Virus record (IMG/VR): IMGVR_UViG_3300020045_003217 | Location: 1-36,515 of that record | Length of the DNA: 36,515 bases | DNA from: a virus | Taxonomy: Duplodnaviria; Caudoviricetes | Reading direction: 5' to 3' (one strand) | In this document: one piece after another, positions 1,674-36,515 of the stretch | Layout of the letters: each line of letters opens with the position of its first letter | Position numbering within the stretch: the stretch's first letter is position 1 | Notes under the pieces: generated by a model | Told to the model about the DNA's origin: nothing | The model's input: only the letters and a program-made list of their open reading frames with translations | Databases searched by the model: none | Translations under genes and position numbers: made by a program

Positions 1674-2927
1674 TTATAGAGTTGTTAGTTGAATGCATTC
1701 TGCATTAGAAAGAGGTATAGGAAATAATACTTCATTTTTCAAATATCTAAGAACTCCGTTTAATTTATTTAAATATTGAAAATTACCAAAAGATAATGGT
1801 ACATTTGCATTTGTAACAACTTTAATACCATTTTCAAAAATATCTACTGTAATTCCATTAAAAACAATAGCTAATTTCACGTAATTAGTTGTTGTGCTAT
1901 AAAGCATTATTTGAGAAAAACCATTCCAATATACAACTGTAAGTCTTACGCTACCACCGCCGGCGTTTCTAAGAGATAAAGACGAAACTCCTGAGGCAAC
2001 AGAGCTTATATTACTTTCTCCTATATAAAATTCAGAACCAAGACCATCTCTAATTAAAGGCACATTATTATTTAATTCAATAAACCACGTACCACCAGCA
2101 CTTGTAATTAATCCATTTGTGTAAATGTTATTTCTATTTAATACATCAGCATTTCTTGTTACTGTACTTGCTACTGTAGGTATGTATGAAGTGGGATATG
2201 CTCCTTGTTCTGCTTGTGCTCCCCATACATACACGTTTAATCCAACAACTGACATTCCTTTTAACGCTCCTAAAAAAGAAGGTGTAATGGCGACTAATCC
2301 TGTAGTAGCTGTAGTGGTAGATGTTACTGTCCAACTACATCGATACCATCCATTACCATAATTCGTAATTGTTGCAATACCTCCTGTTTGTGAGCTTATT
2401 GTTCCATTACTTAAATTAAATACTGCGAATTGAGTATTTACAAATCCATCTGCTCTAAATGTAGCACTAACATAATCTGTATTTCCCGCTTTAGCAAAAA
2501 ATGATTGAGTGTACGTTACTCCAGAAACTGAAGCTGTTGTTGATGGATAAATAAATACATTTGACACAGCTAATGCTTGTACTAAATCAGATGTTAAGGT
2601 ATTATCAGGAGAGTTAGCTACGTTAGTTGTTACTGACATATTCAATTTAATCCAATTAGAATTATCAAACTCTTGACTATAGGTAACTAAATTAGTCCTC
2701 TGCGGTTCTAACAATATACTTGGACAACCTCCTGCTACATCATAGTTTAATCTTGGAACGTTTAAAGCAACTGATTCTATAATTCCACTTGAATTTACCC
2801 TTGTTGCTGTTGTAGCTCTAACTACAGACATATCACCATTACCGTTTGCAGGAATAATGGAGTATAATTTACTTTCTTTTACTGCATTTGGTGTTAAAAC
2901 CAAACTTGCTTTACTTAGTAAACTCAT
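1674..2927 (-). CDS. Head/tail spike-fibre protein with carbohydrate-binding/LamG-like domains
   Basis: RATTATRVNSSG..PRL.Y..LLEPQRTNL and WGAQAEQGAYPTSYIPT..VTRNAD motifs typical of phage spike fibres; likely start is ATG 2927 (MSLLSKAS), overlapping the TGA of the upstream ORF. Confidence 0.7.
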   Translation of the reverse strand: MSLLSKASLVLTPNAVKESKLYSIIPANGNGDMSVVRATTATRVNSSGIIESVALNVPRLNYDVAGGCPSILLEPQRTNLVTYSQEFDNSNWIKLNMSVTTNVANSPDNTLTSDLVQALAVSNVFIYPSTTASVSGVTYTQSFFAKAGNTDYVSATFRADGFVNTQFAVFNLSNGTISSQTGGIATITNYGNGWYRCSWTVTSTTTATTGLVAITPSFLGALKGMSVVGLNVYVWGAQAEQGAYPTSYIPTVASTVTRNADVLNRNNIYTNGLITSAGGTWFIELNNNVPLIRDGLGSEFYIGESNISSVASGVSSLSLRNAGGGSVRLTVVYWNGFSQIMLYSTTTNYVKLAIVFNGITVDIFENGIKVVTNANVPLSFGNFQYLNKLNGVLRYLKNEVLFPIPLSNAECIQLTTL

Positions 2928-3073
2928 ACATTTAGTGTATTTAGTGTTGATACTTGACAAGACTCAGCTTCATAAACACCTGAATCAGCTGCCACCCTTA
3001 GTTTAAAGTCTGCAATTAATGCAGAGACACTTAAACCATTTTGTCCTTGTCCACATGATAGTAGAGTTAACAT
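2924..3073 (-). CDS. Small hypothetical protein, 49 aa (not in ORF track)
   Basis: MLTLLSCGQGQNGLSVSALIADFKLRVAADSGVYEAESCQVSTLNTLNV*; fills the gap exactly and overlaps the next gene by ATGA. Confidence 0.65.
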   Translation of the reverse strand: MLTLLSCGQGQNGLSVSALIADFKLRVAADSGVYEAESCQVSTLNTLNV

Positions 3074-3074
3074 A

Positions 3075-3704
3075 TTAAGCGTAAGTTAAGTTAATAATTA
3101 CATCTCCTGCTCCTACTACAGCTACATCGTTATCTGCTGGTCCTGCAGTAATGGCAATTGAAATTCCTAAGGGAAAATTTACCCCCATAGAAAAGGGAAT
3201 AGCAATACCAGCCCCTTGTGTATTTGCAGGTACAGGAATAGTCATTACAGGAATATCTGTACCAACAGTAGGTGCAGTAGCTTTATTATAAAATTTCAAA
3301 AACCTAACTGTAGATGTAAGCCCTATAGCAACAATTGAGTATAAATTACCTCCAGAAGCTTTAACAACATTTGCATTAGTAGTTCCTAATGAAATTAATT
3401 TATAGGGAGTAGTTCCATTTGAACCAGTTGTATTTGGAATACTAGTAACAGAACTGTTTAAAGTTTCAGAAAGTGACGTATAAAAATTTTCCCATTCTAA
3501 TAATGTATACGCTACATTTAATTCATTAAAAATATTAGGTATTTCTACTATTGCAACACATTTTGTTGTAGTATTTGTTAGATAAATATAATAATTATTT
3601 TCTAATTCATTTTTTTCTACAAAAATATCAGATATTAAATATTCAGAAATAATGTCTGGACCTGTTATAATTAAATAATTATTTTTTTTATATACTTTAT
3701 TCAT
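3075..3704 (-). CDS. Putative virion structural protein
   Basis: C-terminal beta-rich domain (TTNANVVKASGG..LKFYNKATAPTVGTD..FPLGISIAIT) in the structural cluster. Confidence 0.55.
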   Translation of the reverse strand: MNKVYKKNNYLIITGPDIISEYLISDIFVEKNELENNYYIYLTNTTTKCVAIVEIPNIFNELNVAYTLLEWENFYTSLSETLNSSVTSIPNTTGSNGTTPYKLISLGTTNANVVKASGGNLYSIVAIGLTSTVRFLKFYNKATAPTVGTDIPVMTIPVPANTQGAGIAIPFSMGVNFPLGISIAITAGPADNDVAVVGAGDVIINLTYA

Positions 3705-29097: not shown

Positions 29098-29243
29098 AAT
29101 AATACTAATCCTAGAATCTGAGAAATTATCAAGAACCTCATAAATGTAGAAGTACTGATTCTAGGTAAAATATAAATCACTTGCTTGAAAATATTTCTGT
29201 TAAAATATTAGGATATGTCAATTATTTTTCGTATATTTGTATT

Positions 29244-29939
29244 ATGGAAAAAGTATATATTTATTGTCTTAAAGACACAGAAGAAAACATTCGATATATT
29301 GGTAAAACAACTAATATTAAACGAAGATTATATTCTCATATTGCAGAAGCAACGAGAAGTAAAACAAATAGATATGTTCATAATTGGATTAAAAGTTTAT
29401 TAAAAAATAAACAAAAACCAATTATTGAAATAATAGAAATTTGTAATGAAAGTAATTGGATTGAAAAAGAACAATATTGGATTAAATATTATAGAAATAT
29501 AATATCAAATCTTTGCAATAGTTGTGATGGTGGAACTGGTGGGATGACTAGAGATAATCTATCAAAAGAACAGTTATTAAAAAAGAAAAAAATAATGTCT
29601 AATACATTTTCAAAATTTACTAATAAAGATAAAGAAATAATATGGAATATGATTCAAGATAATAAAACTCAATTAGAAATAATGGAGAAATATCCTGAAT
29701 ATACAAGACATATTGATTTTGGAGTTAGAAATGGTAGACAATGGAAAACTATAACTAATTTAGATTATATAAATAAAAATTTAAAAAGAAAAGGTTATAC
29801 TTGTAGAAATGGATTATATATGATTCGTAGAAAAATAAACGAAAAATATAGCGTTGTATTTTCTTCAAGAAGTGAAAAAGAAATAATCACTTGGCTCGAA
29901 GATGAACAGCATATTGGGAATGGTCGGCTAAATATGTGA
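29244..29939 (+). CDS. GIY-YIG homing endonuclease (free-standing)
   Basis: VYIYCL ... RYIGKT.N..RRL.SH ... EQYWI ... LCN..DGG; likely start ATG 29244, 4 nt after TATATTTG (29232-29239). Confidence 0.85.
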   Translation: MEKVYIYCLKDTEENIRYIGKTTNIKRRLYSHIAEATRSKTNRYVHNWIKSLLKNKQKPIIEIIEICNESNWIEKEQYWIKYYRNIISNLCNSCDGGTGGMTRDNLSKEQLLKKKKIMSNTFSKFTNKDKEIIWNMIQDNKTQLEIMEKYPEYTRHIDFGVRNGRQWKTITNLDYINKNLKRKGYTCRNGLYMIRRKINEKYSVVFSSRSEKEIITWLEDEQHIGNGRLNM

Positions 29940-30086
29940 AACTGTACTAGCAGTTGTGTTTATTGTAAAGATATATATGCATTAGAGATTATTTGCATCG
30001 ACTGAAAGTGTACAGATTAGGAACTGTATTTATATTCCACCTAGATATGGACAAGTGATTTTTTTAATAATATAATATAAAACAAA

Positions 30087-30902
30087 ATGAAAACATTCAA
30101 AACAGTATCGTTTCATATCATTAAACCATGTAATATGAAATGTAAGTTTTGTTATGCTACATTTAATGATATTGAAATACAAAAACAATTAACATTTGAA
30201 GAATCTTGTGAAATTATATATAAATTATATAAAGCTGGGGTTAAGAAAATCACATTTGCAGGAGGTGAACCAATGTTATATAAACATTTAGATAGATGTA
30301 TTAAATATGCTAAATTATTGGGTTTAACAACATCTATTATAACCAATGGTTCTTTAATATCATTTAACTGGTTAGTTAGTATGAAAGAACATTTAGATTG
30401 GATAGGATTATCTATTGATAGTTTAAATTATGAAACTAATAAAAAAATAGGTAGAATTGGACGAGATAGATTACATTATAACACATTAATTAAACAAATT
30501 AATCACTTAGGTTATAAATTAAAAATTAATACTGTTGTAAATATTCATAATCAAAACGAAATAATATCTGATTTTATAGCACAATCAAAAGCCACAAGAT
30601 GGAAAGTATTTGATACTTTAAAAGTTGAAGGACAAAATGATAAACAATTTAATAGTATTAAATCTACTAATTATAATCAGTTTATTAAGAATAATCAACA
30701 CCCATCAATGGTAATTGAAACAAATGATTTAATGACTGGTTCATATTTATTAATAGATCCTTTAGGTAGGTTGTTTGAAAATACACAAGGAAAACATACT
30801 TATTCTAAATCATTAATAAATAATAATATTGAAGATTGTTTACAAGAAATAAATTTAAATAGAAATATGTTTATTAAAAGAGGTGGAATATATAATTGGT
30901 AA
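30087..30902 (+). CDS. Viperin-family radical SAM enzyme (ddhNTP synthase-like)
   Basis: FH...CNMKCKFCY (CxxxCxxC), KITFAGGEP, SIITNGS, LDWIGLSIDS, KINTVV, RWKVF..L..EGQN, MTGSYLLIDP.GR, C-terminal FIKRGGIYNW. Confidence 0.9.
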   Translation: MKTFKTVSFHIIKPCNMKCKFCYATFNDIEIQKQLTFEESCEIIYKLYKAGVKKITFAGGEPMLYKHLDRCIKYAKLLGLTTSIITNGSLISFNWLVSMKEHLDWIGLSIDSLNYETNKKIGRIGRDRLHYNTLIKQINHLGYKLKINTVVNIHNQNEIISDFIAQSKATRWKVFDTLKVEGQNDKQFNSIKSTNYNQFIKNNQHPSMVIETNDLMTGSYLLIDPLGRLFENTQGKHTYSKSLINNNIEDCLQEINLNRNMFIKRGGIYNW

Positions 30903-31189
30903 ATAAAAACAAATGAAAGATAAATTAGAAAAATTTATAACTTCTTCTGAAGAAATAAAAGATCCAAATAAAGTATTTACATTAATAATAATACTTGTTA
31001 GTATTATAGTATTTAGTATACTATATTATGTTAAAATAAATAATTAAATATATTATGAGTATAGATTTGAAATAATCTATTAAACCTTTGAAATCAAGTG
31101 TTATCAGTTGATTAGTAAATCTTATAATATTGTGAAATTCAAAACTTATATATCTATGAAAAATAGTTGTATATATAAATCGTATAGTC

Positions 31190-31338
31190 GATTAAAAAAC
31201 TTAATAACTTCACAAGATATTGAGTGCACCAGTTTCTTTTTAAGCTATAAATTCATAATAAAGGATAAACCTTTTGAGTAGAATTGGTAGAAATAGATAT
31301 AAAGTTTTAGGTGTAAAATACAAACAAATTAATTAATC
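31190..31338 (+). ncRNA. Twister-like ribozyme candidate (permuted, lacking P4)
   Basis: CACC/GGTG P1, TAA loop, AATA/TATT P2, CAC-AAG and GA-GTG pseudoknot partners. Confidence 0.35.
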
Positions 31339-31353
31339 TTAAAAACAAATGAT

Positions 31354-32031
31354 ATGAATCAGTTTAAAAGAGCTCAGGTAATATTATTACCTACAAAAAA
31401 TAAAAGTAAATTAGTACTAACTTCAACTCCTATATTAACATTAGTTAATAATGAAGCAATTTATGATTTATCTGAAATTAAATCTCAACATTTATGTATT
31501 ATTTCAGATGATAAAATAAAAGAAGGTGATTGGAAAATTTGTTTAAATGATAATAGTATTTCTCAATATATGTCTAAATCTTGTATTGAAAGTGATACAT
31601 TATGTAAAGATTGTAAAAAAATCATAGCTACAACAGATACTTCATTGTTTACATTAGCTGATTGTCCTGTTAGAGGAGCTGCATCTAATATTAAATATAT
31701 ATTACCTCAACCATCACAACAATTCATTGAAAAATATGTTGAATCTTATAATAAAGGTGAAGTTATTATTGATGTATTAGTTGAATATGAAGAAACATAT
31801 GATGTAAGAAATTACCATGAGAATTTTAACTATAACATTGTTTCTTTAAGACAAGAAAAAATAAATTTTAAATACAATCTTAAAGTAAATTCTAAAGACA
31901 ATACTATTACAATTAAAAAATTAAAAGATAGTTGGAATAGACAAGAAGTGGTTGAATTAATAAAGAAATTTAACAGAGATATTGCTGGATTATATTCTAA
32001 AGATGATAAATGGATTAAAGAAAATTTATAA
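31354..32031 (+). CDS. Hypothetical phage protein
   Basis: 225 aa; QHL.IISDD.IKEGDW, CKKIIATTD, LPQPSQQFIEKYV. Confidence 0.7.
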   Translation: MNQFKRAQVILLPTKNKSKLVLTSTPILTLVNNEAIYDLSEIKSQHLCIISDDKIKEGDWKICLNDNSISQYMSKSCIESDTLCKDCKKIIATTDTSLFTLADCPVRGAASNIKYILPQPSQQFIEKYVESYNKGEVIIDVLVEYEETYDVRNYHENFNYNIVSLRQEKINFKYNLKVNSKDNTITIKKLKDSWNRQEVVELIKKFNRDIAGLYSKDDKWIKENL

Positions 32032-32432
32032 AATAAACCACACATAGAAAGACAAACAAGTAATCAGAATATGTCAATACAAGAAGTGATAATTCTATTA
32101 CAACACTACAAGAAGTGTTATGTTTGTTGAGTATGATAAATTTAGAATTTGCAAGTAGTATTCTTGGGAGTATTTTAATTAAGATTCGAGAGGGTTTTAG
32201 ATTGTAGCAGAGAGAACTCTAAGTTTATCCCTATCTTGAAGGATGTGTGGTTTTATAATAAAATAAATAAGTATGTGGTGGATTCTAATAATTTTATGTG
32301 TAGTATCAATTCATATTCCACATAACAGTAAAAAATATAATCTTAGTTGGCATACAAGATGGTTGTTAACAATAACTTTTTTATATTCATTATATCTAAT
32401 TGTATTTTAAAATAAAAAGGTTAAACATTGAA

Positions 32433-32440
32433 TACCTTTG
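32433..32440 (+). promoter_or_regulatory. Bacteroidota -7 promoter box
   Basis: TACCTTTG immediately before the structured RNA that encloses the HNH gene. Confidence 0.5.
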
Positions 32441-32551
32441 TACTTACATACTCACACTGTGTTGAAGTAAGACATAAAGATACTATCAGTAATGGTAGGT
32501 GGTTAAAGGTTATCCATAATTTATAAAACCTTTATTTTTAAAATTAATATT

Positions 32552-32950
32552 ATGGAAGAAAATTGGAAAGATATCCCTAATTATAAAGGACTATATGAAA
32601 TAAGTGATTTAGGGAACGTAAAATCCATATACTCTAATAAAGTATTAAAACCATCAGCTGATAGATATGGATATGTTAGGTTTTCTGCAACTAAAAATAA
32701 AAAACAAAAAACATTAAGAATACATAGATTAGTTGCTGATTTATTTATATCAAATCCAAAGAATTTACCACAAGTAAATCATATAGATGGTAATAAAGAA
32801 AATTGTGCTAAATCAAATCTTGAATGGTGCACAGATTCTAATAACAAACTGCATGCTTATGCTAATGGTTTAATGGTTGGAGGTAATAAGTATTCAAAAA
32901 CAAGGCAAGATTTACCAAGATATAAGTTGAAATCTACCAACTTTAATTAG
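32552..32950 (+). CDS. NUMOD4-HNH homing endonuclease
   Basis: EENWKDIPNYKGLYEISDLGNVKS (NUMOD4); IHRLVA..F...VNHIDGNKEN...NLEWCT..N..H (HNH). Confidence 0.9.
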   Translation: MEENWKDIPNYKGLYEISDLGNVKSIYSNKVLKPSADRYGYVRFSATKNKKQKTLRIHRLVADLFISNPKNLPQVNHIDGNKENCAKSNLEWCTDSNNKLHAYANGLMVGGNKYSKTRQDLPRYKLKSTNFN

Positions 32951-33235
32951 AAGATTACAGTAATGTAATCCATAGATGGGAATGTATGAGATATGTCCCT
33001 ATACACTATGAGAAGTTCTCAGCAAGTAGTTTGCGGTATAAATTTATATGAGCTAGGTGAAATACCTATTACTAACTACGTGACCCTACTCTTATTAACA
33101 CATTGGTTTTAAAATATCGTTGTGCTATGATAAGAAAGAGGGTGCTAAATTAAATACTAAAATATTATGAAATAGTCAATAACCTTTCTAATACTTTTAT
33201 AAAAGTATATTTTATTAATTTTAAAACTAAATATT

Positions 33236-33367
33236 ATGTCAAGAAGTAAATATTCTTATGTTCAAAAAAATAAAACGATTAAATATTCTAAAGGAGGATA
33301 TAAATTTAATCGTAATGGTGTACCATTAGATAAAAATGGTCAAAATGTTATGAAAAATACATTATAA
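33236..33367 (+). CDS. Small basic protein, 43 aa (not in ORF track)
   Basis: MSRSKYSYVQKNKTIKYSKGGYKFNRNGVPLDKNGQNVMKNTL*; AT-rich leader. Confidence 0.45.
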   Translation: MSRSKYSYVQKNKTIKYSKGGYKFNRNGVPLDKNGQNVMKNTL

Positions 33368-33375
33368 CTGTATAA

Positions 33376-33615
33376 ATGTATACTGTGATTAATGGTAAAT
33401 GGAGTCATCTGAATGGTGAAACATTAAATCCAGTTGATATAACTCAATTATCAATTAAAATAGATAATATGAAACCTATTGCTAAAATTACACATCGTGA
33501 TAAATTAACATCAATTTTTCATATTATTAATAATAATTCTAAAACAGTAGAATTATGTTCTAAACTTTTTAATCAATCAGATAGTACTATTGCTATCATA
33601 AACAAAAAACTATGA
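33376..33615 (+). CDS. Hypothetical protein
   Basis: 79 aa; ATGA overlap with the next ORF. Confidence 0.55.
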   Translation: MYTVINGKWSHLNGETLNPVDITQLSIKIDNMKPIAKITHRDKLTSIFHIINNNSKTVELCSKLFNQSDSTIAIINKKL

Positions 33616-33884
33616 CAGTAAATAAAATAGGATATAACATACCTAGTACATTCCAAATGATTAAGGTTATCAATAATGATTCACCAAGAATGTTAAAAGT
33701 ACATCGAGATGAATTTAATAGAATAAGTAAAAAAGATGGTAAGCAATTATCAAAACCATACATGGACTATGTTCAAATGTTATATATTAAATATATTTTG
33801 AATAAAAAACAAATTTTTCCAAATATTGTAATCCAAGCACAACATATTGGTATGAAAATGTTAAATAACACAGCACTGACATAG
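33612..33884 (+). CDS. Hypothetical protein
   Basis: 90 aa. Confidence 0.55.
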   Translation: MTVNKIGYNIPSTFQMIKVINNDSPRMLKVHRDEFNRISKKDGKQLSKPYMDYVQMLYIKYILNKKQIFPNIVIQAQHIGMKMLNNTALT

Positions 33885-33938
33885 ACAAAAGTCTTTGAAG
33901 AAGCGCAACATATAATAAGTCTTAGTTTGTTGCAAAAT

Positions 33939-33970
33939 AAACCACTAGGTTATAATAGTCTAGTGGTTTT
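33939..33970 (+). terminator. Terminator-like hairpin
   Basis: AAACCACTAG ... CTAGTGGTTTT. Confidence 0.6.
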
Positions 33971-33989
33971 ATAATAAAATAATAATATT

Positions 33990-34124
33990 ATGAAAAAGAA
34001 AATTAAATATAAATATATAAATTCTTTAATTTATAAATTACAAACTGAAAAAGATTCAGAAGATGGTATTACAAAAAATGGTGAAAATCTTCTAAAAGAA
34101 TTAATTGAAGTTACTTCAAAATAA
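33990..34124 (+). CDS. Small protein, 44 aa, just upstream of tmRNA (not in ORF track)
   Basis: MKKKIKYKYINSLIYKLQTEKDSEDGITKNGENLLKELIEVTSK*. Confidence 0.4.
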   Translation: MKKKIKYKYINSLIYKLQTEKDSEDGITKNGENLLKELIEVTSK

Positions 34125-34230
34125 ATATAACGGGGATGACTGGAATTGACTCTTTGTTACTAATTATATAATTCAGCCAGAGATAACTGTAAACATAGGT
34201 GAAAGTTACTTAAATGTAACAAATTTAAAT

Positions 34231-34344
34231 GGAAAAGATCAAGTATTAGCAAATATGCAAGTAGTTCATAACATCTTAAATGGTAGTGATACTGTTATAG
34301 GTGGTAAAACTTCAGTTAAAACAGAAATGTTAATTGCCGCATAA
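34231..34344 (+). other. tmRNA tag reading frame
   Basis: TTAAAT|GGA resume context; GKDQVLANMQVVHNILNGSDTVIGGKTSVKTEMLIAA*; second in-frame TTAAAT|GGT at 34282. Confidence 0.7.
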
Positions 34345-34691
34345 ATTTAAATAGTTAGTAGTAATACTAACAAATTCAAGCTATAGAATAATTTAGCATT
34401 ACTCCACATTTAATAGAATTTAAGGGAGGTTAAAGATTAAATTCTATAATAAGCTGTATAAAATTATATAACGAATGCAAGGAACACGAGGGTTTGATTT
34501 GGACCCATAGTATAGGAATATACTATTAAAAATTGGAAGAATTGTCTGGAACGCTAAGTTACATCTACGAGAGTAATATGCCAATCAGCAGCCGAGCCTT
34601 ATGGAAGTATAAGGAAGGTTCAACGACTAAGGACACTACGGTGAGCCTACAGCCTCCAACATCTAGAACAGATGATGATATAGTCTAATCT

Positions 34692-35111
34692 CTATTGAAA
34701 AATAGAGCAGAAAAATAGTCTTTCATAAGCTAATTTTCTATTAATTTCAGATAAAGAATATTTACCATTTTTAGAAGTTACAATATTATGATATTTTAAA
34801 ATAGTATTAATTCGATGTAATTTCATTGGATGAATAGATTTTAGTAATTTACATAATTGTAAACATTTTTGATTACTATTAATTGATAATGCATAACCAA
34901 TTGAATGATTTAATTGTTTAGCTGGTTTAGTAGATATTGATAAATTTAAATTATAATTATCTAACAAATACTTTTGTATATCTAATAAGATATTTAATTT
35001 TGTATTTGTAAAATCAATTTTAATTGTTCGATATTTATCATTTTTACTATTTTTACTCATTGTAATTGATCCATCAGCATCAAAAAATCCAGAAATGTAA
35101 TCTAAAGTCAT
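34692..35111 (-). CDS. Single-motif LAGLIDADG homing endonuclease, antisense within the intron
   Basis: N-terminal YISGFFDADGSI; F.NT...LL.DI..YL; 139 aa; stop codon lies in the P9 helix. Confidence 0.9.
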   Translation of the reverse strand: MTLDYISGFFDADGSITMSKNSKNDKYRTIKIDFTNTKLNILLDIQKYLLDNYNLNLSISTKPAKQLNHSIGYALSINSNQKCLQLCKLLKSIHPMKLHRINTILKYHNIVTSKNGKYSLSEINRKLAYERLFFCSIFQ

Positions 35112-35157
35112 AATTTATATTTTATATATTAGTAATGGGGTTAATATAACCCATATG

Positions 35158-35165
35158 CAAATATA
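35158..35165 (-). promoter_or_regulatory. Intron-internal promoter for the LAGLIDADG gene
   Basis: TATATTTG on the minus strand 46 nt upstream of ATG 35111, with TTG about 20 nt further upstream. Confidence 0.65.
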
Positions 35166-35388
35166 CGACATTTAAATTTAAAAAACAAGTAAAATTCAAT
35201 TTATTTTATAATATTTTATATTATATGAAATTAAAACATTGCGAATCCCTCCATCTCCACAGTGATACTTGATCTAACACTAAGAGAGTATCGTGTTTAT
35301 GGATGTAGTTAGCATCACGATAAACCCTGTAACAGCTCAATGTTACCAGTTAGAGTAGGATGACTAGTATGTGAAGCTCTAACAAAAT

Positions 35389-35459
35389 GTCTTTATAGCT
35401 CAGGGGTAGAGCACTTGATGCTAATCAAGGGGTCGACAGTTCGAGTCTGTCTAAAGTCC
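35389..35459 (+). tRNA. Atypical tRNA / pseudo-tRNA (6-nt anticodon loop TGCTAA; identity unresolved)
   Basis: D-arm GCTC/GAGC, anticodon stem CTTGA/TCAAG, T-arm GACAG-TTCGAGT-CTGTC, acceptor GTCTTTA/TAAAGTC with a U-U mismatch. Confidence 0.7.
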
Positions 35460-35487
35460 TAAAAATTAATAATTTTAAATAAATACT

Positions 35488-36288
35488 ATGAAATACATAT
35501 TAATAAAAACTTATCCTGGAAGTCCTAAATTAAATACTATTATTAATTTTGGTGATATAGATTGTGATTTTACACATAATCCAAAAAATTATCCAGAATT
35601 TTGGGAAATAGTTGTTGAAAAAGATTATGAAATATTATCTTTAATAAATATACAAATCCCATCAAAACCAGTAATAATTACTAAAAAAGAAAATAATTTA
35701 TTTTCTATCATTGATACACCTGGCATTAAAACTCTTGAATTTTATGATAAATATGATTATATTAAAATTCATTCAGTTAAAAGATTATCTGATGGCGAAA
35801 TATTTACTATAGATGATGATGTTATTTTTGAATTAGGTAAAGGAAAATGTCATTATAAACATTTTAGAAGTGGTAAGTGCGCAATTGATATTGCAACTAA
35901 AATTGTATCTTTTGTAATTCAAGAAGATATGTTAACAGTCCAGATAGACTATAATAAACTGTGTTATTCATTAGATGCTCCTGAAAAAGTTAAAAAAGTA
36001 TTATTTACAACTGAAGATGGTGTTGATATTTTTGAAGGTGATTATTATTATCCTGTAGATAAATTATATTATTTTTTACATGAAAAGCAAACAAATAATC
36101 ATTGTACAAATAATGATAAATTTTGGATATTTTCAACAAAAGAAAAAGCTGAAGAATATATTTTAATGAATAAACCTTGTTTATCGTTAAATGATATTGA
36201 ATTTGCAATTTTTAAAACAAATAATGCTGAAGAAAAGCGTAATAAATTAAAAGATTTAGTAAAATCAAAAATAAAACAGTCCGTGTAA
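35488..36288 (+). CDS. Hypothetical phage protein
   Basis: 266 aa; LIKTYPGSP, IHSVKRLSDGEIFTI, LFTTEDGVDIFEGD blocks. Confidence 0.7.
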   Translation: MKYILIKTYPGSPKLNTIINFGDIDCDFTHNPKNYPEFWEIVVEKDYEILSLINIQIPSKPVIITKKENNLFSIIDTPGIKTLEFYDKYDYIKIHSVKRLSDGEIFTIDDDVIFELGKGKCHYKHFRSGKCAIDIATKIVSFVIQEDMLTVQIDYNKLCYSLDAPEKVKKVLFTTEDGVDIFEGDYYYPVDKLYYFLHEKQTNNHCTNNDKFWIFSTKEKAEEYILMNKPCLSLNDIEFAIFKTNNAEEKRNKLKDLVKSKIKQSV

Positions 36289-36515
36289 ACTGTGAATAAA
36301 TAACATTTAGTGCAAATGTTTAGCACCCTATCCATGTGGATAACAATTATAAGCATCACTTACAAAACCACGTTGAATTGTAAATGTATAAGAGTAAAAC
36401 TTATAATTGGGGAAATGTAGATTGACAACCTACAGTGTTATTTTATATTATTACATATAATCAATAAATATTATAATTTTAAATCAATAAAAATGACAGT
36501 TACTAAAAATTGTAA

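Follow-up and report, generated by a model that had tools for sequence, protein, structure and literature searches.

A tmRNA gene of a crAss-like phage is split by a predicted self-splicing group I intron that carries an antisense nuclease gene, and we consider it highly probable that this intron is an element spreading by homing. The gene occupies positions 34132 to 35259 of a linear viral record of 36.5 kb (36% complete), which was analyzed over its whole length of 36,515 nucleotides and is called the window below. An initial annotation, made from the sequence alone, had assigned this region to a tmRNA gene with a group I intron at 34495-35241, and these coordinates proved to be exact. The same annotation had attributed the window to a crAss-like phage, in agreement with the crAss-type major capsid, ring and auxiliary capsid proteins (PF23898, E-value 6e-166, PF25650, PF25710) and the portal and terminase PHROGs that we identified. 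It had described the intron without its homing nuclease gene, which fills 420 of the 747 intron bases in antisense orientation and explains why the intron is there.

The split gene escapes standard annotation, as had been suspected from the outset. ARAGORN found no tmRNA in the unspliced sequence, neither in the whole window nor in the locus, and an Rfam scan of 30000-36515 (6.5 kb at once) returned no intron match, both being misses due to filter or format. When 34495-35241 was removed in silico, ARAGORN reported a tmRNA starting at 34132 with a score of 100.3, which is barely above threshold and counts as "weak" under the >103 rule given in the accessible text of PMC11915505. When the junction was shifted by up to 6 bases around the proposed ends, a tmRNA was called for only one of the 169 registers, the proposed one.

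The 5' exon (34132-34494, plus strand) contains the 5' strand of the acceptor stem, the D-loop equivalent, helix 2, the tag frame, the 5' strand of the T-stem and the first two U residues of the T-loop, and is 87.9% identical over 338 nt to the intronless allele L104. The remainder of the T-loop, the 3' strands of T-stem and acceptor stem and the discriminator A make up the 3' exon (35242-35259, plus strand), which is delimited by ARAGORN and by stem pairing. A 19-mer of this exon occurs in other viral loci, after an uninterrupted T-stem in 52 of 52; 35 of these are ARAGORN tmRNAs, and none has an intron core. Joining of the exons restores the T-arm, and the alanine-type acceptor with its G3-U70 pair, both claimed initially, is present in the sequence: 34132-34138 pair with 35252-35258, G34134-U35256 corresponds to G3-U70, and A35259 is the discriminator. 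The bases that follow are C-A-G, so the CCA end is incompletely encoded. The spliced tmRNA also has a tag that ends in LIAA-stop. Among the distinct intronless homologues, 9 of 11 match the tmRNA model RF00023, 5 of them over the gathering score, and the closest homologue, L104, is without a match.

The tag frame of the window tmRNA probably has 37 codons (34231-34344, plus strand), as judged from the open frame, the equivalent start in L104 and conservation of the frame in homologous tags; the predicted resume codon is the one at 34231. ARAGORN reported only the last 13 codons in the spliced window sequence, and in the intronless L104 it placed the tag start at the codon equivalent to 34231. 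Homologous phage tags have 30-45 codons, with a shared central peptide and a frame that is kept through indels. A comparison over 12 tag codons is circular in part, since 8 of them had been specified in the search pattern. The long frame sets the phage family (the window and L092-L108, 30-45 codons) apart from the Bacteroidota hosts examined, which have tags of 9 codons. Between the 5' exon and L104, the mRNA-like part is near-identical save for a 21-nt in-frame indel, and the tRNA-like ends are strongly divergent, which is the reverse of the usual pattern. The differences in the acceptor stem of L104 are compensatory. Diverged ends of this kind may stem from exchanges of the tRNA-like domain that the nuclease brought about.

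The intron is 747 nt long (34495-35241, plus strand) and interrupts the T-loop after its second U, at position 3 in the numbering taken from the text of PMC11915505. The check with a group I model that had been proposed gave an RF00028 match at 34484-34707 with 97.3 bits (E-value 7.7e-26, gathering score 50). The ribozyme core (34490-34707, plus strand) runs from P1 to P9, with a P7.1 stem between P7 and P3, and is IA-like if the subclass rules that we take to apply are correct. All group I hallmarks named in the initial annotation (the U-G pair of P1, P10, P3, P7, P8, P9, P9.0 and omega-G) were located. The pair at the 5' splice site is U34494-G34502, P7 joins 34623 and 34625-34629 to 34681-34686, P10 has 6 bp, and omega-G is G35241. 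A second group I intron of the same type was not found in the window, and an exact search with the 5' exon-intron junction had no match in IMG/VR.

Covariation supports the core. The window intron was aligned with 17 position-3 homologues from phages and hosts. In these 18 sequences, 97.5% of the cells form standard pairs, and 34 of 61 base pairs are changed on both sides; none of 500 shuffles scored as high, and slid partners pair at 30-41%. The U at position -1 and the G-C pair of the guanosine site in P7 are each found in 18 of 18 introns. Next to the latter, a pair and the bulge covary, with A-U accompanied by C in 3 introns and G-C accompanied by A in 15. Two features depart from an ideal core. 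P3 has an A-C mismatch, and P4 has an additional U at 34545, which is confined to the window copy in the alignment (1 of 18). This U is no sequencing error, since contigs from the sequencing runs X1, X16 and X20 cover 34545 without a gap. Over 142 bases, the X20 allele has 3 differences, two of which form a compensatory pair in a nearby stem, so the intron structure is still under selection.

The intron-borne gene encodes a single-motif LAGLIDADG endonuclease of 139 amino acids (34692-35111, minus strand; PF14528, E-value 3e-8; PF00961, E-value 3e-6). It is placed after P9, and its last codons overlap the P9 hairpin. The motif at residues 5-16, including the acidic catalytic residue, is invariant in seven of seven sequences. 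In an AlphaFold model the protein has the alpha-beta-beta-alpha-beta-beta-alpha order and the single motif of the homodimeric enzymes I-CvuI, I-MsoI and I-CreI, which were the best Foldseek matches (E-values 2e-5 to 1e-4). It differs from them in sequence (13-22% identity), the model has a pLDDT of only 69, and target and dimer state are predicted. The frame is intact, and dN/dS values of 0.18-0.47 in five of five comparisons with relatives indicate purifying selection.

A Bacteroidota-type promoter is predicted upstream of the nuclease gene (35158-35188, minus strand), with TTG, a 20-nt spacer and TAnnTTTG, ending 46 nt before the ATG. In its strict form, the consensus that we assumed precedes 7 of 35 nuclease genes (mean of 0.24 in shuffled sequences), and in a relaxed form it precedes 21 of them (mean of 1.5). 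Window-wide, the strict pattern was not enriched (7 occurrences, 3.5 expected), and a scan for sigma-70 promoters gave fewer sites than in shuffles. A small inverted repeat just past the predicted promoter (35138-35152) resembles the T-stem target and could be an autoregulatory operator; L001 and L002 have similar repeats after their promoters. The intron is inserted among the four bases at the centre of the T-loop palindrome, but overall symmetry around the site is modest (5 of 11 pairs centred on the palindrome).

Most related phages lack the intron. Relatives were collected by a pattern from the tag region, independent of the intron, which yielded 17 viral tmRNA loci. Three have the intron with the nuclease gene and 14 (11 distinct) are intronless, so that intronless alleles, which the initial annotation had suggested looking for, do exist. 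The loci L101 and L107 have near-identical 5' exons, one with and the other without intron. A closer counterpart of the window gene was found in a contig of 463 nt from run X2. It matches 34371-34488 (118 nt) without a difference, continues with six letters that depart from the window at two T-stem positions beside the joint, and resumes at 35242, with 4 differences in the following 259 nt. Because of these two bases, and because the run is probably DNA, the contig counts as an intron-free allele and not as a splice product. It is near-identical to the window gene, and its joint is at the predicted site. The two altered bases are what homing with co-conversion, or escape of the target, would be expected to give.

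The exact spliced junction was not present in the contigs of any of eight runs, six of them recorded as RNA. Only contigs were available and most runs were shallow, so this absence neither supports nor refutes splicing. A joint in run X18 (depth 760) was considered as a splice product and rejected: 32 other letters lie between its two sides, as in an intronless relative. From the absence of the intron in the near-identical allele and in 14 of 17 relatives, we conclude that it is an optional, likely homing element rather than a splicing switch. The initial annotation had proposed that ribosome rescue by the phage depends on splicing. This is trivially true for the gene copy in the window; as a general trait it does not hold, for the same absences, and there is no sign of regulated splicing.

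The nuclease family is tied to tmRNA genes in phages and hosts. We collected 24 viral and 15 GTDB loci; viral contexts were sorted by eye, and cores were confirmed with a model of our own. In 23 of the 24 viral loci the nuclease gene is at a tmRNA 3' end, 17 times inside an intron and 6 times free-standing; the remaining locus is a weak unrelated match. The intron-borne copies comprise 11 in antisense orientation at position 3, two in sense orientation at position 3, and four in antisense orientation at position 7 or 8. The free-standing copies lie just downstream of the tmRNA 3' end, three beside a position-3 intron without an ORF and three beside an intronless gene, two of which have altered T-loops. 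Of 24 viral loci (the window and three further loci included), 12 had a T-arm that a strict script could reassemble, as had 9 of 11 host loci, and the others were read by eye. Without splicing, ARAGORN detected none of these loci. A crAss capsid family is encoded in 12 of the 23 viral records, and in 6 of the 7 that are near-complete.

Additional arrangements were noted in individual loci. L006 (near 800-1450) and L081 (near 2900-3420) have a copy of the tmRNA 3' end on either side of the nuclease gene, an arrangement that resembles a transition between intron-borne and free-standing forms. Further viral tmRNA introns at position 3 were seen in L116, L126 and L131; one is an ORF-less intron of 224 nt, one is long without a match to the nuclease family, and one has a sense nuclease. 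The P7.1 motif is also present in 11 of 23 loci without sign of an adjacent tmRNA exon, apparently as part of introns in protein genes.

Among hosts, Bacteroidota contribute 12 of the 15 GTDB loci, 11 of them with an intron core, and the other three are weak archaeal matches. L077 and L078 are embedded among housekeeping genes, as named from the translations. Five host genomes were checked, and in all five no tmRNA other than the one with the intron exceeds the Rfam cut-off; the intron family therefore very likely splices in vivo. Of 401 Bacteroidota genomes, one contains the core (0 of 400 apart from this genome, on which the sample was centred), compared with 3 of 17 related phage tmRNA loci, the two samples having been drawn differently. 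Among 50,697 GenBank phage records, we found no match to tmRNA plus intron; the core was matched in part by 6, and a search with the nuclease returned a single phage, at 28.7% identity.

The trees do not group the host copies together. The window nuclease belongs to a clade of 16 rows (support 98/100) that contains position-3 and position-8 copies, one free-standing copy and two host position-7 copies. A single host clade was rejected in the nuclease tree (11 versus 23 rows, with L061, L076 and L088-L091 left out; p-AU 9e-48) and in the ribozyme tree (L061 and L064 left out as duplicates; p-AU 8e-4). The nuclease clade was itself rejected on the ribozyme tree (p-AU 7e-4), hence the gene likely moved between ribozymes. 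The groups were named after the first trees had been seen, and the trees are unrooted and give no direction of transfer. The occupation of three T-loop sites, the free-standing copies and the scattering of the hosts suggest repeated exchange between phages and hosts.

The following course of events is proposed. As in other group I introns, guanosine would attack at U34494-G34502, and ligation guided by P10 at omega-G35241 would then restore the T-arm. Host enzymes would trim the ends, add CCA and charge the RNA with alanine, and host SmpB would deliver it; the initial annotation had already noted that smpB is absent from the window (which covers 36% of the genome), and we found none in five of five near-complete intron-bearing relatives either. 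The nuclease would be made from its own antisense promoter and, like other members of the LAGLIDADG family, would dimerise. Judging from the behaviour of this family and from the tie to tmRNA 3' ends, it would cut tmRNA genes that lack the intron, at the T-arm, which forms an inverted repeat by nature. An intron-bearing copy would serve as template for the repair, and the intron would be transferred together with a few flanking bases, and a gene with the intron would be immune, its site being split. Such an element would be selfish and about neutral to the phage, moving among Bacteroidota phages and occasionally into a host ssrA.

Other explanations of the arrangement were weighed against this homing scenario. 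It is improbable that the nuclease serves mainly as a weapon or takeover tool, which cuts the host ssrA and the tmRNA genes of rival phages and leaves rescue to the immune phage tmRNA with its long tag. Candidate targets do exist, as the ligated exons share 29 consecutive bases with the tmRNA of a Bacteroidota host (L110) and the T-arm/acceptor motif occurs within one mismatch in 265 of 301 Bacteroidota genomes, and the T-arms of intronless phage relatives are far more variable than their mRNA-like parts. However, most of the motif matches listed have a different acceptor at their end and resemble tRNA genes rather than tmRNA genes, the element is absent from most relatives, and cutting of the host gene is a side effect that plain homing predicts too. 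We regard it as quite unlikely that the window copy is defective in splicing, so that the intron inactivated the phage tmRNA and persists by homing alone. The extra U in P4, the P3 mismatch and the failure to find the spliced junction in eight runs could be read in this way, but the extra U recurs in X1, X16 and X20, X20 with its compensatory pair, the P3 mismatch is common to L001 and L004, and splice-site pair, P10, P9.0, guanosine site and tag frame are all intact.

That splicing is a regulatory switch, kept by the phage to time or condition ribosome rescue, appears very improbable. The intron does block T-arm formation until its removal, and an antisense transcript across it could in principle affect splicing; yet the intron is dispensed with in the near-identical allele and most relatives, sits at differing T-loop sites in other relatives, and is already accounted for by its nuclease gene. 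An assembly chimera or chance match can practically be dismissed. No contig from the examined runs spans the whole locus, but an identical 423-nt DNA contig from X1, which may be the source sample, joins the core to the nuclease gene, 11 other viral records have the same site and orientation, and P1, P10 and the junction fit at the level of single bases. The homing scenario can also be extended into a broader, doubtful one, in which introns of the tmRNA T-loop have their reservoir in Bacteroidota phages and are carried by them. A single LAGLIDADG family would target the T-arm repeat common to phage and host ssrA, cycle between free-standing and intron-borne forms at three subsites, and have seeded host chromosomes several times; during infection, it would cut the only ssrA of the host while the split phage gene is immune, passing rescue to the phage tmRNA with its 37-residue tag.

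Several other features of the window were recorded. A tRNA gene downstream of the tmRNA gene (35389-35459, plus strand; RF00005, 50.4 bits) has an anticodon loop of 6 nt, to which no anticodon could be assigned. Its syntenic homologue in L092 and L093 is a tRNA with CAU anticodon, relative to which the acceptor stem and loop of the window gene are remodelled; one loop base differs in the X2 allele. The spacer of 128 nt between the two RNA genes (35261-35388, plus strand) has four predicted hairpins (z -1.5, not significant) and no Rfam match. It is 92% identical in L092 and L093 even though the flanking RNAs diverge, and a relative of it was found on a contig of depth 760 from an RNA library; possibly it is an unnamed non-coding RNA. 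Further homing-type nuclease genes, of the GIY-YIG and NUMOD4-HNH types, are located at 29181-29939 and 32552-32950 (plus strand), with no group I core of the window-intron type nearby. Stop-codon recoding was considered and rejected: portal and terminase genes end in TAG, and coding coverage rises from 0.805 to only 0.82 with TAG as sense codon. An ORF at 33612-33884 (plus strand) ends in TAG and is followed by about 30 more open codons, which looks like a degenerate gene rather than recoding.

Introns of this type have already been catalogued in bacteria, and it is mainly the phage setting that is new. The accessible text of Nawrocki, Petrov and Williams (2025, PMC11915505) reports 883 intron-form tmRNA genes at four T-loop positions, with all position-3 cases in the class Bacteroidia; 36 have a nuclease gene and no intron exceeds 700 bp. 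The position-3 introns described there share with the window intron the subsite after the second T-loop U and the rules for the -1 U and omega-G. A LAGLIDADG gene after P9 was also described, in 4 of 844 founding introns. The window differs in that the gene is on a phage and the intron has 747 nt. The orientation of the nuclease gene differs as well, since it is antisense at position 3 in the window, whereas the host loci that we fetched have it in sense at position 3 and in antisense only at position 7. Four host loci with the nuclease family (JADZFW010000081, JANTFO010000030, DMFR01000196 and JAMZMJ010000003) are rows of the tmRNA_intron alignment accompanying PMC11915505, and the element family is therefore already catalogued on the host side. 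The word "phage" does not occur in the part of its supplement that holds models and alignments. According to the accessible text, the tmRNA database holds 79 phage tmRNAs, from RefSeq viruses, the only viruses searched.

The initial annotation had pointed to the Clostridium botulinum tmRNA as a precedent. This is correct insofar as the latter also has a group I intron in the T-loop, but the site is not the same: the accessible text of PMC11915505, citing Williams (2002), places it at position 7, in a chromosomal gene of a Bacillota species. According to the accessible text of Hausner et al. (2014, PMC3984707), the usual enzymes of phage introns are GIY-YIG, HNH, PD-(D/E)xK and EDxHD nucleases. 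In the collaborative or intronless homing described there, the target of a free-standing nuclease is also the insertion site of an intron without an ORF, which may later take up the nuclease gene, and flanking bases are co-converted. The relatives of the window show all states of this model, but the target is a tmRNA T-arm common to the host and the enzyme is of the LAGLIDADG type. crAss-like phages are rich in group I introns, those described being in protein genes, and tmRNA is not mentioned in the accessible text (bioRxiv 10.1101/2020.07.20.212944). Some phages encode tmRNA, according to the accessible text of PMC4131195, in which introns are not mentioned, and the study in bioRxiv 10.1101/2020.01.27.920355 covers, as far as its accessible text goes, bacterial and archaeal genomes only. 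We found no phage tmRNA intron in a literature search with thin coverage of subscription journals; the form-by-taxon table of PMC11915505 and its figshare database lay outside the search and could list one.

Together, these results show that phages do have intron-split tmRNA genes. Routine annotation overlooks them, and counts of phage tmRNAs are therefore underestimates. The near-identical intron-free allele makes homing, co-conversion and cleavage of host ssrA directly testable, and the relatives hold every stage of the collaborative-homing model at a single target. Introns carried by phages offer a route by which the patchy distribution of tmRNA introns in bacteria could have arisen.
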